5,457 bases of DNA, taken from IMG/VR virus record IMGVR_UViG_2778261154_000004. One strand, written 5' to 3'. This DNA is from a virus (Duplodnaviria > Heunggongvirae > Uroviricota > Caudoviricetes). Positions within the stretch are counted from its first letter, which is position 1. The number at the start of each line of letters is the position of its first letter. The notes under the pieces were generated by a model. It ran no database searches, had not been told where the DNA came from, and saw only the letters and a list, made by a program, of their open reading frames with translations. This document shows positions 14 to 5,162 of this stretch, piece by piece. A program made the position numbers and the translations under genes.

Positions 14-142
14 TATTAGCTCCTTCTGATGCCATTCTATTTCAGGAAGGAGTGTCCGTTAAACTCAGGCTACCTCATACCTATATCGCTAGGTAAATTT
101 AGTGGTGATCATCCTGCCAGTAAAGCTGTTATTTCTACTGAC

Positions 143-316
143 ATGAAAACTGGTGAGGAGGTTTATTATGAAGCAGCTATGGATGCTGTCAGAGAAGGAT
201 TTGATAGTTCGTCAATTAGTCGTTGCTGTAATGGCGAAAGCTCATATCACAAAGGAAGATTCTGGCGATTTGCAAATGAAACAATGAAAGCGCGATGGGG
301 AGACAGGGCGGCATGA
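143..316 (+). CDS. NinD-like small protein (57 aa)
   Basis: ORF ends in an ATGA stop/start overlap with the NinE start at 313, the lambda nin-region coupling style. The 57-aa length from ATG 143 matches lambda NinD as I recall it. No SD precedes 143 and the frame stays open back to ATG 29, so the start is uncertain. Confidence 0.45.
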
Positions 317-489: not shown

Positions 490-530
490 CTATTTATCCG
501 GTGCGCCGCCAGAATGACGGCGCGGTGTGG

Positions 531-839
531 TTAAACGAAGCGGATCTGGAGTTTTTTTCCAGTAGCGCGGGCGAATTTTTTTAGTGTGGCAAATGATGGG
601 CCGCTGATACCTGATGCGAGATTACTTTCCATTCTGGTGATCGCGGTCGCTTTTGTTCCCATTCGCTCGGCAACTTCAGCCTGAGTTAAGCCAGCTTCTT
701 TGCGTGCTGCCAGCATTTCATCAAGCAGTGCGAATTCGTCAGCGATAGCGTCGTATTCTGCTTTAAAAGCCGGGTCTTCCATCCATTTGGCTGCCATTTC
801 GTCGTGTGTCATGGTGGGGAGAGTGCGTTTACCAGTCAT
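531..839 (-). CDS. XRE-family HTH antitoxin (HigA-like)
   Basis: 102 aa with an HTH motif (GLTQAEVAERMGTKATAITRME) and C-terminal ATLKKFARATGKKLQIRFV. On the minus strand AAGGAGGT (complement of 846-853) lies 5 nt upstream of ATG 839-837. The start overlaps the upstream toxin stop by 11 nt. Confidence 0.8.
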   Translation of the reverse strand: MTGKRTLPTMTHDEMAAKWMEDPAFKAEYDAIADEFALLDEMLAARKEAGLTQAEVAERMGTKATAITRMESNLASGISGPSFATLKKFARATGKKLQIRFV

Positions 840-1158
840 GCTTAACCTCCTTCATTCTGGTTTCAGCTTTCTTGCGTTCGGCTGGCGGTGTTTTCTGCGT
901 TTTCTTTACAAAACTATGCAGCATGATGATGCGTTTCCCTGTCAGAGTGCAGTAAAAAACACGCGCGATCCCATCGTTGCCTTTAATTCTGAGTTCGAAA
1001 AGCCCGTCACCAAAGGCGCTGGTGTGAGGTTCTCCGAGATTGCTGCCATATATCTTCATACGTTCAACGAGATGTTGGTATCGGGCACGCATACTCAATG
1101 GAAGCCGATCGACTTCCAGCCTTACATCTTCACTGTAGTATTCGATAGTGTAGTTCAT
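829..1158 (-). CDS. RelE/ParE-superfamily toxin (HigB / phage Gp49-like, DUF891-type)
   Basis: 109 aa from MNYTIEYY; motif GDGLFELRIKGNDGIARVFYCTLTGKRIIMLHSFVKKTQKTPPAE is typical of the Gp49/HigB-2-type toxin fold. Toxin-first order with overlap into the HTH antitoxin. Start 1158 chosen; in-frame ATGs at 1170 and 1293 also exist. Confidence 0.75.
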   Translation of the reverse strand: MNYTIEYYSEDVRLEVDRLPLSMRARYQHLVERMKIYGSNLGEPHTSAFGDGLFELRIKGNDGIARVFYCTLTGKRIIMLHSFVKKTQKTPPAERKKAETRMKEVKHDW

Positions 1159-1203
1159 AGGTATCAACATAACAAAATCGTTATATGCATTCAAGGCCTG
1201 TAG

Positions 1204-1233
1204 TTGACGACAACACATATCCGGGGCTATATT
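1204..1233 (+). promoter_or_regulatory. Candidate sigma70 promoter (TTGACG - 18 nt - TATATT) facing rightward
   Basis: -35 TTGACG at 1204-1209, 18-nt spacer, -10 TATATT at 1228-1233. Predicted start near 1240, exactly where the first hairpin begins. Judged by eye only. Confidence 0.35.
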
Positions 1234-1239
1234 CCTCAT

Positions 1240-1316
1240 ACGCCAGCAAAATCTGGCGTCGGGATTGGCGTCCCGGATATCGAAACGGTGCATAACCGCG
1301 CTGGCGGTTTTTTTAT
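1240..1316 (+). ncRNA. Candidate small structured RNA or terminated leader (about 75 nt, three stem-loops)
   Basis: Hairpin 1 at 1240-1259 (ACGCCAG/CTGGCGT, perfect 7 bp, 6-nt loop); hairpin 2 at 1260-1275 (CGGGA/TCCCG); terminator hairpin 1294-1309 followed by a T-run. The CUGGCG motif recurs three times. No ORF with an RBS on this strand. Confidence 0.35.
1294..1316 (+). terminator. Rho-independent terminator (plus strand)
   Basis: AACCGC-GCTG-GCGGTT stem-loop (6 bp, 4-nt loop) followed by T7 (1308-1314). On the minus strand the hairpin is not followed by a U-tract, so it is unidirectional. Confidence 0.55.
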
Positions 1317-1476
1317 GCGCTAAGCACAGTCACATTCGCGATTTATGGTGGGCTGTGTGGGGGAGTTGAGAGACTCGCCGGATGTTTCGACCGGTTACGC
1401 CAACCCTGCACAGTTCACCACCCAGCGATTGGCGTCGCAGGTGGTGAGTTAAAAACCATCGAAACGCGAGGTCGTT

Positions 1477-2163
1477 ATGACTGTTCAGATTTCTGTCAAA
1501 AACCTTTCCCCTGTTACCTATAACCAGATTCCGGTAATCACAACTGAGTTGCTTGCCCGCCTTTATGGAACAGAAACAATCCGTATACAGCAGAATCACC
1601 ATGAAAATAAATCTCGGTTTATTGAGGGAAAGCACTTCTTTAAAGCTGTTGGTGATGAACTCAGAAATTTGCGACTAGTTTTAAACGAGTCGCAAAATGA
1701 GGTGAAAATCTCTCCCAAAACCCGCTCGCTCATCCTCTGGACAGAACGAGGCGCAGCCCGCCACGCAAAAATGCTCGAAACCGATCAGGCGTGGGAAGTG
1801 TTCGAAAAACTGGAAGACTGCTATTTCAGCCAGACTTCGAAAAGCGCAGGTCATCACGAGAAGAAAACCAGCGAGCTTTCTGCAAAAGATGCAAACAGTC
1901 TGGTATGGTTGTGGGATTATGCCAACCGCTCACAGGCATTATTCCGCGAACTGTATCCGGCATTAAAACAAATTCAATCGAACTATTCCGGCAGATGCTA
2001 CGACTACGGTCATGAGTTCTCGTATGTTATCGGAATGGCGAGAGACGTTTTAATCAATCACACACGAGATGTTGATATTAATGAGCCAGACGGACCAACG
2101 AATCTTTCTGCATGGGTAAGACTTAAGAACAAAGAATTACCTCCTTCACTACATCACTACTGA
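1477..2163 (+). CDS. ORF6N-domain phage protein (Roi / antirepressor-like), 228 aa
   Basis: RBS GCGAGG at 1466-1471, 5 nt before ATG 1477. N-terminal region ([48 protein letters not shown] ... [31 protein letters not shown]) fits the ORF6N pattern seen in lambdoid Roi/Ant-like proteins. C-terminal half unassigned. Confidence 0.7.
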
Positions 2164-4674: not shown

Positions 4675-4749
4675 GGGTCAGTCGTATAAAGGTCATTACG
4701 GAAGGCTGTTAACCTTCTTATCGTGGTTCGAGTCCACGCTGTCCCGCCA
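4675..4749 (+). tRNA. tRNA-Asn-like, anticodon GUU (possibly degenerate)
   Basis: Cloverleaf traced by hand: acceptor GGGTCAG/CTGTCCC (6 bp plus a T-T mismatch at 4:69), U8, D-arm with A14/G18G19/A21, perfect anticodon stem GAAGG/CCTTC with loop CTGTTAA, perfect T-arm CGTGG-TTCGAGT-CCACG, discriminator G, encoded CCA. Confidence 0.55.
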
Positions 4750-4754
4750 AACAT

Positions 4755-4830
4755 GCTGGTTTAGCTCCAATGGTAGAGCAGTCGCCTTGTAAGCGAATGG
4801 GTAGCGGTTCAAGTCCGTTAACCAGCACCA
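4755..4830 (+). tRNA. tRNA-Thr, anticodon UGU
   Basis: Perfect 7-bp acceptor stem GCTGGTT/AACCAGC, D-arm GCTC-CAATGGTA-GAGC, anticodon loop CTTGTAA (U33, UGU, A37), T-arm AGCGG-TTCAAGT-CCGTT, discriminator A, encoded CCA. Minor deviations: C at position 14 and a G-A closing pair in the anticodon stem. Confidence 0.75.
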
Positions 4831-4946
4831 TAACTGAGCCGTAGCCACTGGCTATCCTGAATTCATCAGTGACAGTTACGCTGCGGCCTTCTTTTTCCCT
4901 TCCCAATATAAGAACTACGCCATCCGTTATTTGCGGAGGTGAGGCT

Positions 4947-5162
4947 ATGAAATCCATGGACAAAATATCAACGGGCATTGCCTACGGCACCTCCGCAGGC
5001 AGTGCCGGCTACTGGTTTTTACAGTGGCTTGATCAGGTCAGTCCATCACAGTGGGCTGCGATTGGTGTGCTGGGAAGTCTGCTTCTGGGGCTTCTGACTT
5101 ATCTGACGAATCTGTATTTCAAAATAAGAGAAGATAAGCGTAAGGCTGCGAGAGGTGAATAA
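4947..5162 (+). CDS. S: Class II holin / pinholin (phage 21 S-type) with dual-start motif
   Basis: 71 aa starting [28 protein letters not shown] with two hydrophobic segments and C-terminal [13 protein letters not shown], matching the phage 21 pinholin as recalled. SD GGAGGTGAGG at 4935-4944. Met1 (4947) and Met4 (4956) give the antiholin/holin dual start. Upstream in-frame ATG 4869 lacks an SD. Confidence 0.9.

Follow-up and report, generated by a model that had tools for sequence, protein, structure and literature searches.

A predicted toxin-first Gp49-class toxin-antitoxin cassette between ninE and an isrK/C4-antirepressor module in a lambda-like prophage of Escherichia coli

We found that a lambda-like prophage of Escherichia coli, represented by a window of 5,457 nucleotides (the whole stretch of DNA that was analysed), carries a two-gene toxin-antitoxin (TA) cassette on its minus strand, with ninE on one side and antirepressor (ant) genes on the other. 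Judged from its sequence, the cassette is a self-contained, toxin-first type II TA system of the Gp49/Tad-Ata ("HigBA-like") class, and it is real, probably functional and of an ordinary, well-known kind. The explanation that best accounts for the locus as a whole, and that we consider quite probable, is a Gp49-class TA moron with an RNase toxin, an autorepressing antitoxin and a role in the exclusion of other phages. The two coding sequences occupy 531-1158, and with its hairpin and promoter the whole cassette extends over approximately 503-1200, with the following features:

829-1158, minus strand: higB-like toxin gene (109 aa; ATG at 1158, TAA at 831-829), Gp49/DUF891 family, RelE/ParE superfamily
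531-839, minus strand: higA-like antitoxin gene (102 aa; ATG at 839, TAA at 533-531)
846-852, minus strand: Shine-Dalgarno (SD) sequence AAGGAGG of the antitoxin gene, within toxin codons K103-E104 and 6 nt ahead of the ATG at 839
1166-1194, minus strand: predicted sigma-70 promoter of the cassette, with -35 box TTGAAT (1194-1189), 17-nt spacer and TG-extended -10 box TATGTT (1171-1166)
1169-1184, minus strand: palindrome ATAACGATTTTGTTAT, overlapping the spacer and the -10 box, candidate HigA/HigBA operator
503-523, minus strand: GC-rich hairpin GCGCCGTCA-TTC-TGGCGGCGC, 8 nt past the antitoxin stop codon

A first-pass annotation of the locus had described an opposite-strand gene pair with an 11-nt overlap and a strong SD before the second gene, and this was exact: the open reading frame list and the translations place 829-839 in both frames. 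It had also named the proteins a Gp49/HigB-like toxin of the RelE superfamily and an XRE-HTH antitoxin, and the domain search it proposed placed them in these predicted families, Gp49/DUF891 (PF05973) and HTH_XRE (HTH_3, PF01381), and not in unrelated ones. The best PDB matches of the two proteins are the two chains, A (HigB) and B (HigA), of one TA complex, 6AF3. That the family was already known is borne out by RefSeq, which labels an identical pair "type II toxin-antitoxin system RelE/ParE family toxin" and "helix-turn-helix domain-containing protein". As the same annotation had noted, the pair runs against a rightward operon, all other recognisable genes of the window (by Pfam) being on the opposite strand:

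Plus strand: NUMOD-like fragment, NinE, ORF6N/P22AR_C Ant, Rha/KilAC Ant, YbcO, RusA, NinH, Q and holin

The toxin matched PF05973 with an E-value of 7.4e-26 and a score of 90.5 bits (cut-off 23.9), covering positions 3-90 of the 90-position profile; this was the only family reported for it, while the classical HigB families of Pfam gave no match at E <= 0.01. It aligned end to end with PHROG 2523 (E 2.6e-45), and its best PDB sequence match was 6af3_A, Streptococcus pneumoniae HigB (SpHigB; E 1.5e-5). The AF2 model (pLDDT 90) has the order beta-alpha-alpha-beta4-long alpha3, with a helix at residues 92-108 following the four-stranded sheet. Foldseek ranked SpHigB (TM 0.75-0.78) and ribosome-bound Mycobacterium tuberculosis (Mtb) HigB1 (TM 0.70), both with probability 1.00, ahead of RelE, VcHigB2, YoeB and ParE. 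According to this model, the protein adopts the HigB/RelE fold and ends in the long helix that characterises Gp49-like toxins. A ParE-type gyrase poison found no support in these searches, with ParE2 at TM 0.44-0.46 and E > 0.1, compared with TM 0.70-0.78 and E 2e-5 for HigB, and no ParE match in Pfam.

Residues proposed as catalytic in this RNase family include E66, R68, R73, F90 and K92 of SpHigB and Q98 and K99 of the Mtb protein (PMC7984235, PMC9098466). We compared these and the Mtb set K58/E66/R68/N73/R77/K95/Q98/K99 with the toxin by pairwise HMMER alignment and residue spacing, not by inspected structural superposition, and assigned as counterparts E55, R57, R66, F83, K85, Q88 and K89. 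Across 48 homologs, E55, R57, R66, F83 and K85 were invariant and K89 nearly so. The equivalents of SpHigB K58 and D61 were not conserved, nor were those of Mtb K58 and N73, which are S47 (variable) and D62. On this alignment, the toxin appears to keep most of the residues proposed as catalytic, at low overall identity to the biochemically characterised toxins (∼25% for both SpHigB and Mtb HigB1).

The start of the toxin gene was called differently among gene callers (76, 87, 109, 113, 125 or 129 aa) because it has no SD. A 154-aa open reading frame (829..1293) was rejected as an artefact because the family begins with M-x-Y-T-I and the extension overruns isrK, the adjacent RNA gene. We also discarded the 113-aa start at 1170, as that ATG falls within the predicted -10 box and related loci have a TAA in frame behind it. 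In one sub-lineage (PhiR5_2 and 2/12 related loci), ATA replaces the start ATG.

The antitoxin matched PF01381 over residues 44-98 (E 3.4e-11, 43.5 bits, cut-off 23). Helices are predicted at residues 12-19 and 23-49, followed by the XRE helix-turn-helix, and the C-terminus, ...LQIRFV, comes immediately after this domain. Its best PDB sequence match, 6af3_B HigA, had an E-value of 0.001. The AF2 monomer was of low confidence (pLDDT 68), and a fold search with this model returned generic XRE proteins only, none at E <= 1e-3. Purifying selection was indicated for both genes, with dN/dS of 0.01–0.11 for the antitoxin and 0.02–0.17 for the toxin.

The cassette promoter scored 8/12, under the threshold of the promoter scan, and yet the arrangement TTGnnn-17-TAnnnT-7-AT(G/A) was present in 50/50 enterobacterial loci, the sequence of the 7-nt linker being variable. 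Given that the toxin ATG at 1158 lies 7 nt downstream of this conserved -10 box and has no SD, a leaderless or almost leaderless toxin mRNA is predicted. The palindrome is a candidate operator for autorepression of the cassette: TAAC-N6/7-GTTA was found in all 50 of these loci despite differing flanks, and a similar palindrome occurs in relatives of 41% identity. At the other end, the hairpin (RNA fold -16.9 kcal/mol, z -3.15) is conserved in POCJ13 and PhiR5_2, and every match to the cassette starts at window position 503, so the hairpin marks a left edge that is conserved across contexts. The terminator scan gave no canonical intrinsic terminator for the cassette, and the stable hairpin, which is not followed by a U tract, may act as a 3' mRNA stabiliser or a weak terminator.

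Because ninE adjoins ant in relatives such as phi24B, the segment that holds the cassette is an accessory insert, as the first-pass annotation had proposed from orientation and position:

487-1200: inserted segment of ∼710 bp relative to ninE-ant "empty-site" phages, its junctions uncertain by a few bases (phi24B alignment)

In phi24B and many Stx phages, both flanks of the insert were matched in two pieces, and ninE there continues directly into the sequence upstream of ant. The insertion changes the end of NinE from ...RARKTR* to ...RARK*. The cassette occupies at least three prophage positions, and its TA region is 100% identical in E. coli VL40, where the remainder of the prophage is different; the best matches to the whole window reached 85–88% coverage at ∼95% identity. 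Published Stx-phage genomes (POCJ13, 75/02 Stx and PhiR5_2) contain it, and among 5426 complete E. coli genomes it is rare (31). Related viral loci almost always keep the two genes together (79 of 80 have an antitoxin homolog after the toxin gene), and the pair is also kept in an Acinetobacter plasmid and in the chromosome of the methanotroph Methylospira, where the genes likewise overlap by 11 nt. With respect to what is expected of a phage moron, the cassette is absent from collinear relatives, lies in opposite orientation and has a conserved predicted promoter, and its 3' end is a hairpin without a U tract. We conclude from these sequence comparisons that it is an accessory gene cassette ("moron") of a lambdoid prophage. 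Our literature search returned no study on this specific pair or on TA cassettes at the ninE/ant junction.

The position between ninE and antirepressor-type genes was also correct in the first-pass annotation, but the right-hand neighbour is fuller than it had described, as it is a complete isrK/C4 antisense-RNA and antirepressor module with its own divergent promoter:

1204-1233, plus strand: promoter of the isrK/C4-ant operon, TTGACG-18-TATATT (promoter scan 10/12), outside the insert and divergent from the cassette
1227-1425, plus strand: neighbouring RNAs, namely c4-a1b1 sites (1227-1279), isrK sRNA with terminator (1240-1314) and C4 antisense RNA (1341-1425)
1477-2163, plus strand: antirepressor gene (ORF6N and P22_AR_C by Pfam; "phage antirepressor Ant" in RefSeq), served by the isrK/C4 leader

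All three RNA elements scored above the Rfam gathering thresholds (c4-a1b1, 49.6 bits; isrK, 77 bits; C4, 68.7 bits), and the isrK terminator at 1294-1309 is followed by a T run. The -35 box of this promoter is 9 bp from that of the cassette. Across the enterobacterial prophage loci that we examined, the cassette points away from such an isrK/C4-type RNA-antirepressor module; this orientation and the predicted leaderless toxin mRNA may be new details.

The known class to which the pair belongs includes gp49/gp48 of phage N15 and Tad-Ata (Paracoccus pAMI2 and SXT), with Pfam Gp49/DUF891 and COG4679 as its family designations. N15 gp49, the namesake of the Pfam family, is 46% identical to the toxin over residues 15-105, the first 14 residues of the toxin being unaligned. 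In both cases the toxin gene comes first, an XRE-HTH antitoxin gene follows directly and the carrier is a temperate phage. The N15 genes, however, abut with one shared base instead of overlapping by 11 nt, and by annotation N15 has neither a TA-C4 linkage nor an ant module adjoining the pair. N15 is also a linear plasmid-prophage, for which plasmid stabilisation is sensible, whereas the cassette here resides in an integrated lambdoid prophage. By its title, Dziewit et al. (2007; cited in PMC2701414) reports a stabilising system in N15 with homology to tad-ata.

Among solved structures, S. pneumoniae HigBA (6AF3/6AF4) is the best match for both proteins. The pair shares with it the RelE fold with the long C-terminal helix and an antitoxin in which an N-terminal helix precedes the HTH, and by alignment the toxin has apparent counterparts of E66, R68, R73, F90 and K92. 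Sequence identity is ∼20–27%, and SpHigB differs in being ∼10 residues longer and from a Gram-positive host, and relatives in that lineage have ordinary SDs. Cleavage of mRNA in the ribosomal A site has been demonstrated for Mtb HigB1 of TAC (7AWK/7NBU), which has the Gp49-like fold (TM 0.70 to the toxin) and whose E66, R68, R77, F93, K95, Q98 and K99 have apparent counterparts in the toxin. TAC requires a SecB-like chaperone and a C-terminal chaperone-addiction (ChAD) tail on the antitoxin; the ∼710-bp insert has no chaperone gene and the antitoxin no such tail, which rules out membership of TAC. Acinetobacter baumannii HigBA2 (pAB120-type plasmids) is likewise a toxin-first operon with a Gp49-domain toxin, for which RNase activity, autorepression by HigA with HigB as co-repressor, and plasmid stabilisation are experimental findings (PMC5906591). 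It is nevertheless not a close relative, given that two candidate Gp49-type toxin genes of p3ABAYE, a plasmid listed as carrying higBA2Ab (PMC5906591), were 28% identical over 47 aa; at 66%, a separate and uncharacterised lineage of Acinetobacter plasmids is closer, though its leader differs in sequence. Classical HigB systems (Proteus vulgaris Rts1 and E. coli K-12) also place the toxin first, pair it with an XRE antitoxin and belong by fold to the RelE superfamily, but classical HigB proteins are missing the long alpha3 helix (PMC9098466). The name "HigB" here denotes operon architecture and not family membership.

Extrapolating from SpHigB and Mtb HigB1, we propose that the toxin would be a RelE-type, probably ribosome-dependent, mRNA endonuclease that halts translation. 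As in characterised relatives, the antitoxin would bind it via its N-terminal helices, and the XRE HTH would probably bind the ATAAC-N6-GTTAT palindrome over the -10 box and repress the operon, for which HigA autorepression with HigB as co-repressor is a precedent in a Gp49-type system (PMC5906591). Expression in a lysogen would be possible, since the predicted promoter of the operon is its own and points away from the phage early-right operon. The leaderless AUG would make toxin translation inefficient and the strong SD in the last codons of the toxin gene would promote that of the antitoxin, so that antitoxin would stay in excess despite the toxin-first order. Upon host shut-off by an infecting phage or upon prophage loss, the presumably labile antitoxin would no longer be made and free toxin would cut mRNAs. 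The payoff, a guess and the weakest step of the proposal, would be that other phages are excluded in the manner of abortive infection, the module being stabilised as a by-product. HigB-type toxins occur in anti-phage systems. To date, every HigB-type system described as a defence depends on a third component (a chaperone, or else a peptidase with a partner), and the two-gene insert of ∼710 bp has none. The PADLOC-DB v2 defence models gave no full-length match, the toxin covering 51 residues of the 293-position NsnC profile and the antitoxin giving weak generic HTH matches; a catalogued defence system was ruled out on this partial NsnC domain match. We propose a defence role for the cassette purely by inference.

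The same molecular machine could instead serve mainly addiction or stabilisation, with loss of the prophage or segment leading to poisoning by the longer-lived toxin, a selfish persistence without phage protection. We regard this as the less probable payoff. Replicons are stabilised by characterised Gp49-class relatives, such as A. baumannii higBA2 (PMC5906591) and tad-ata with its homologs in N15 and SXT (Dziewit et al., 2007, again by its citation in PMC2701414). The cassette moves among prophage positions as a small unit that brings its promoter and hairpin along, and its rarity is more in keeping with selfish hitch-hiking than with a defence of broad use. However, integrated prophages are lost far less often than plasmids, and therefore post-segregational killing has little to act on, while phage defence has been shown for prophage-borne TA systems and for HigB-type toxins in particular. 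A further alternative concerns the activity of the toxin. Mtb HigB2 and HigB3, Gp49-family paralogs that lack several of the proposed catalytic residues, were non-toxic in M. smegmatis, and by comparison the locus might be a decaying TA system in which an XRE regulator accompanies an attenuated or inactive, harmless RelE-fold partner. The missing equivalent of Mtb HigB1 K58, the ATA start in the PhiR5_2 sub-lineage and the low toxin output predicted from a leaderless start without SD are compatible with this. Such a loss of activity nonetheless seems improbable to us, because a dead toxin would not be expected to retain the invariant E55, R57, R66, F83 and K85 and nearly invariant K89, the low dN/dS, a reading frame intact in 50/50 full-length related loci (one further locus, L057, covers toxin residues 1-68 only) and the tight overlap with a conserved antitoxin gene.

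The close association with the antirepressor module raises another alternative, in which the pair is not an independent TA system but functionally part of an immI-like isrK/C4-ant module. The cassette and the divergent operon would then form one functional unit, with the XRE protein (with or without Gp49 as co-repressor) regulating the ant promoter, or with toxin activation tied to antirepressor expression and prophage induction, and their linkage would reflect this coupling of the antitoxin/toxin state to antirepressor expression. In immI of phage P22, the repressor gene mnt is divergently transcribed beside arc-ant, which offers an analogy for such coupling. In every enterobacterial locus checked, an isrK/C4 or sRNA-Xcc1 RNA lies divergently upstream of the toxin gene, in most of them ∼75–80 nt away; the divergent -35 boxes are just 4–9 bp apart and the two start points 76–82 bp apart, and the linkage spans several sequence-distinct intergenic classes and three genome positions. 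This linkage is, however, equally explained by common ancestry of a composite block or by a preferred recombination site. We searched 1201-1240, including the ant-operon promoter (1204-1233), for an ATAAC/GTTAT half-site and found none, and hence no second HigA operator. In phi24B, and in E. coli genomes numbering well above a thousand, the ant-operon promoter works with no cassette present; in POCJ13, the cassette and the RNA-ant unit lie 2 kb apart, with other genes in between. Homologous pairs also occur without such an RNA in N15 (by annotation), the Acinetobacter plasmid and the Methylospira chromosome, three replicons to which Rfam was not applied. We therefore give functional coupling little credence, and the combination of a leaderless toxin and a strong-SD antitoxin, a smaller novelty, is more likely.

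As a TA system, the cassette adds little, given that the family has been described since 2007 and the pair is named by NCBI's pipeline. If coupling to ant were true, it would bear on prophage induction or heteroimmune cross-talk, and the link to isrK/C4-antirepressor modules is of specialist interest because such modules influence prophage induction. The conserved -10 box, 7-nt linker and AUG without SD provide a hypothesis for stoichiometry control in toxin-first operons, which is described as not understood (PMC5906591). The cassette is also a clean natural example of a ∼0.7-kb TA unit that travels between lambdoid and Stx prophages and whose empty sites are defined, and these empty sites would make it easier to distinguish defence of the lysogen from mere self-stabilisation.

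The first-pass annotation had described an overlapping toxin-antitoxin-like gene pair on the opposite strand of the nin region, and this description was accurate in every particular, including the open reading frames, their 11-nt overlap, the Shine-Dalgarno (SD) sequence and the Pfam families. The domain search that it had proposed for both proteins returned Gp49 for the first (PF05973; E = 7.4e-26, 90.5 bits against a cut-off of 23.9) and HTH_3 for the second (E = 3.4e-11). The remaining recognisable genes of the window are on the plus strand without exception. The features are arranged as follows:

829..1158, minus strand: toxin gene, 109 aa, ATG at 1158, TAA at 831-829
531..839, minus strand: antitoxin gene, 102 aa, ATG at 839, TAA at 533-531
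852-846, minus strand: antitoxin SD AAGGAGG, 6 nt 5' of the antitoxin ATG, within toxin codons K103-E104
4675-4830, plus strand: tRNA-Asn(GTT) and tRNA-Thr(TGT), between the Q antiterminator gene and the holin gene
4869-5162, plus strand: P21-type holin S gene
other genes, plus strand: NUMOD-like endonuclease fragment, NinE, two antirepressors, YbcO, RusA, NinH and Q

In Stx phages, the site between Q and holin S houses tRNAs and stx.

Both proteins have their best PDB sequence match in a single entry, 6AF3, the S. pneumoniae HigB-HigA complex (toxin to chain A, E = 1.5e-5; antitoxin to chain B, E = 0.001). The AlphaFold2 model of the toxin, built with 48 homologs (pLDDT 90, pTM 0.83), has the order beta1-alpha1-alpha2-beta2-5-long alpha3, with the long C-terminal helix typical of Gp49-like toxins (PMC9098466). 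Foldseek against the PDB placed SpHigB, the toxin of 6AF3, at the top (TM 0.75-0.78), M. tuberculosis (Mtb) HigB1, ribosome-bound and free, in second rank (TM 0.70), and RelE, V. cholerae HigB2, YoeB and ParE well behind. The proposed catalytic residues of SpHigB (E66, R68, R73, F90, K92; PMC7984235) have counterparts in Mtb HigB1 (E66, R68, R77, F93, K95, with Q98 and K99; PMC9098466), and HMMER alignment and residue spacing map these to E55, R57, R66, F83, K85, Q88 and K89 of the window toxin. Across the 48 aligned sequences, E55, R57, R66, F83 and K85 never vary and K89 hardly does; a variable serine stands at the position of K58 in Mtb HigB1. Mtb HigB2 and HigB3, without several of these residues, are non-toxic in M. 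smegmatis (PMC9098466). In the antitoxin, predicted helices at residues 12-19 and 23-49 precede the XRE helix-turn-helix; its monomer model is of moderate confidence (pLDDT 68) and its fold matches are generic XRE proteins, so we read from the model only an XRE helix-turn-helix protein with an N-terminal extension.

The toxin family is large and tightly conserved: 2875 proteins came back from a word-indexed search, among them many beta- and gammaproteobacterial homologs of the same length at 64-70% identity. With the toxin as query, 80 IMG/VR loci were retrieved, and in 79 of these an antitoxin homolog comes directly after the toxin; every close locus, and also a Methylospira chromosome, has the 11-nt overlap. 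Compared with nine diverged copies, the toxin gene has dN/dS of 0.02-0.17 and the antitoxin gene of 0.01-0.11, with dS up to saturation, and both reading frames were intact in every full-length copy examined. Phage N15 gp49, namesake of the Pfam Gp49 family, is 46% identical to the toxin over residues 15-105; a 2007 article by Dziewit et al., by its title as cited in PMC2701414, concerns an N15 stabilising system homologous to tad-ata. An uncharacterised Acinetobacter plasmid lineage carries a 66% identical toxin. Two candidate Gp49-type toxin genes on p3ABAYE, listed as a carrier of the experimentally studied higBA2Ab (PMC5906591), are distant (28% over 47 aa). The two genes diverge unequally, with no synonymous differences in the antitoxin gene and nine in the toxin gene between window 531-1158 and locus L018, and with 72% toxin and 91% antitoxin identity to the PhiR5_2 clade, which makes the cassette internally mosaic and places recombination breakpoints within the operon. 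A prophage fragment with a HigBA-like cassette also gave an Rfam match to sok, the hok/sok type I antitoxin RNA (L042 1-85).

The pair had also been read as an accessory insertion, which empty sites in Stx phages bear out. Megablast of 450-1480 against phage genomes matched both flanks in two pieces, with the middle absent, in many Stx phages, including phi24B, Min27 and YYZ-2008. Alignment to phi24B shows identity to the end of ninE, resuming from about 1200, with some 710 bp present only in the window; NinE ends in ...RARK* with the insertion and ...RARKTR* without it. Of 5426 complete E. coli genomes, only 31 carry the cassette (503 to about 1200), in each case on the chromosome. It occupies at least three different prophage settings. 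In the window and in strain VL40 (TA region 100% identical) it lies between ninE and ant; in Shigella Stx phage POCJ13 and in PhiR5_2 it follows a ren-like gene and precedes ant and ninB; and in strain TUM9812, near the immunity region, it is flanked by a DUF4222 gene and Rha-type genes. RefSeq names the pair 'type II toxin-antitoxin system RelE/ParE family toxin' and 'helix-turn-helix domain-containing protein', and the PhiR5_2 record names the genes HigB and HigA. Given that the VL40 carrier prophage (L001 9284-11669, 17493-18613) is degraded by IS600, IS2 and IS1 insertions truncating its antA/antB, replication and terminase genes, the cassette persists in a defective prophage. The frame 5' of ninE (29-316, plus strand) represents the 3' portion of a homing-endonuclease-like gene of the NUMOD4/HNH type, with a weak I-HmuI NUMOD match and the VL40 annotation 'NUMOD4 domain-containing protein'; phi24B has a Dam-like methyltransferase at this position.

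We infer the expression signals of the cassette from its conserved anatomy:

1194-1189 and 1171-1166, minus strand: predicted cassette promoter, -35 TTGAAT, 17-nt spacer, TG-extended -10 TATGTT
1184-1169, minus strand: palindrome ATAAC-N6-GTTAT, in the spacer and -10 box
503-523, minus strand: GC-rich 9-bp hairpin 3' of the antitoxin gene (-16.9 kcal/mol, z -3.15)

The promoter (8/12) was not called by the promoter scan. Exactly 7 nt separate the -10 box from the toxin ATG, upstream of which no SD was found, whereas Firmicute-type relatives have AGGAGG leaders. The pattern TTGnnn-17-TAnnnT-7-AT(G/A) was present in 50/50 enterobacterial loci, the 7-nt linker and sequences further upstream varying among lineages and -10 box variation being confined to less critical positions (TATGTT, TATCTT, TATATT; TATTAT in a 53%-identical relative). 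Because this geometry is conserved, we predict that transcription starts at or beside the A of the AUG, which would yield a leaderless toxin mRNA. Since there is no SD, gene callers pick differing toxin starts; public annotations of the same intact frame (829-1170; L003, L005, L006) give 76, 87, 109, 113, 125 and 129 aa. In PhiR5_2 (L005 3659-3661), L053 and L054, toxin codon 1 is ATA, vs. ATG in 10 sister loci, and the only alternative start would be an in-frame ATG four codons upstream, within the -10 box; this sub-lineage may represent a toxin knock-down variant. The palindrome, also found in 50/50 loci and replaced by another at the same place in 41%-identical relatives, is the obvious candidate operator. 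In a Gp49-type system of A. baumannii, the promoter is repressed by HigA with HigB as co-repressor, and the paper on it points out that how toxin-first operons set the toxin:antitoxin ratio is not known (PMC5906591); a poorly translated leaderless toxin followed by a strong-SD antitoxin is one plausible answer. The hairpin is part of the conserved cassette and has no U tract.

The right edge of the insert adjoins a complete unit (1204-2163, plus strand) of the P1 immI-like, Gifsy-1 IsrK-like kind (PMC4825925):

1204-1233, plus strand: good promoter before isrK, TTGACG-18-TATATT
1227-1279, plus strand: c4-a1b1 target sites (Rfam, above gathering threshold)
1240-1314, plus strand: isrK sRNA with terminator (Rfam, above gathering threshold)
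1341-1425, plus strand: C4 antisense RNA (Rfam, above gathering threshold)
1477-2163, plus strand: ORF6N/P22AR_C antirepressor (Pfam), after the C4 RNA

In every enterobacterial locus of this toxin lineage that was checked (blastn and Rfam), such an RNA lies divergently upstream of the toxin, either the isrK/C4 pair or an sRNA-Xcc1 match at the equivalent place before ant, at about 75-80 nt from the toxin start in most loci. This linkage holds at each of the three genome positions and in several intergenic classes that differ in sequence; in POCJ13, 2 kb of other genes lie between the cassette and the RNA-ant unit. Between the two -35 boxes lie 9 bp in the window and 4 bp in a second class. 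The unit also occurs without the cassette in phi24B, and the flanks of the insert have matches in over a thousand E. coli genomes. No HigA half-site was found over the ant-operon promoter in the window, and such an RNA partner is not annotated in N15, on the Acinetobacter plasmid or at the Methylospira locus. Functional coupling is therefore no more likely than shared descent of a composite block or a hot spot of recombination in the conserved TTGACG junction. Far outside the enterobacteria, the toxin in the Methylospira mobilis chromosome (L088 289-1353) is 68% identical, its gene again overlaps the antitoxin gene by 11 nt, and a gene pointing in the divergent direction about 1.6 kb away encodes a P22_AR_N (antirepressor) domain. 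Some prophages have two tandem isrK-C4 units beside the cassette (L006 4237-4425 and 5226-5414; L019 3081-3269 and 3737-3925), and in L006 each of the two coincides with the beginning of a gene annotated as a Rha-family regulator. The RefSeq Rha CDS of TUM9812, which overlaps the RNA genes and toxin start, is probably over-extended.

A conventional type II TA system is the best-supported model for this sequence. The RelE-fold toxin would be an mRNA endonuclease, probably ribosome-dependent, that the XRE antitoxin would keep inactive while repressing the operon, and the cassette would be expressed in the lysogen from its own promoter. During lytic growth, antiterminated rightward pR transcription would cross it in antisense. 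Regarding its role for the prophage, we lean slightly toward exclusion of superinfecting phages. Stabilisation is the main rival, as relatives stabilise plasmids (PMC5906591; Dziewit et al., 2007, by title in PMC2701414); however, HigB-type toxins occur in anti-phage systems, although those carry extra components, and PADLOC has no model for this pair. The pair is real and was correctly interpreted, and its interest is low to moderate given that its kind is known and already annotated. Two points alone go beyond routine annotation: that the toxin mRNA is predicted to be leaderless, and that the cassette is constantly linked to isrK/C4-ant modules.
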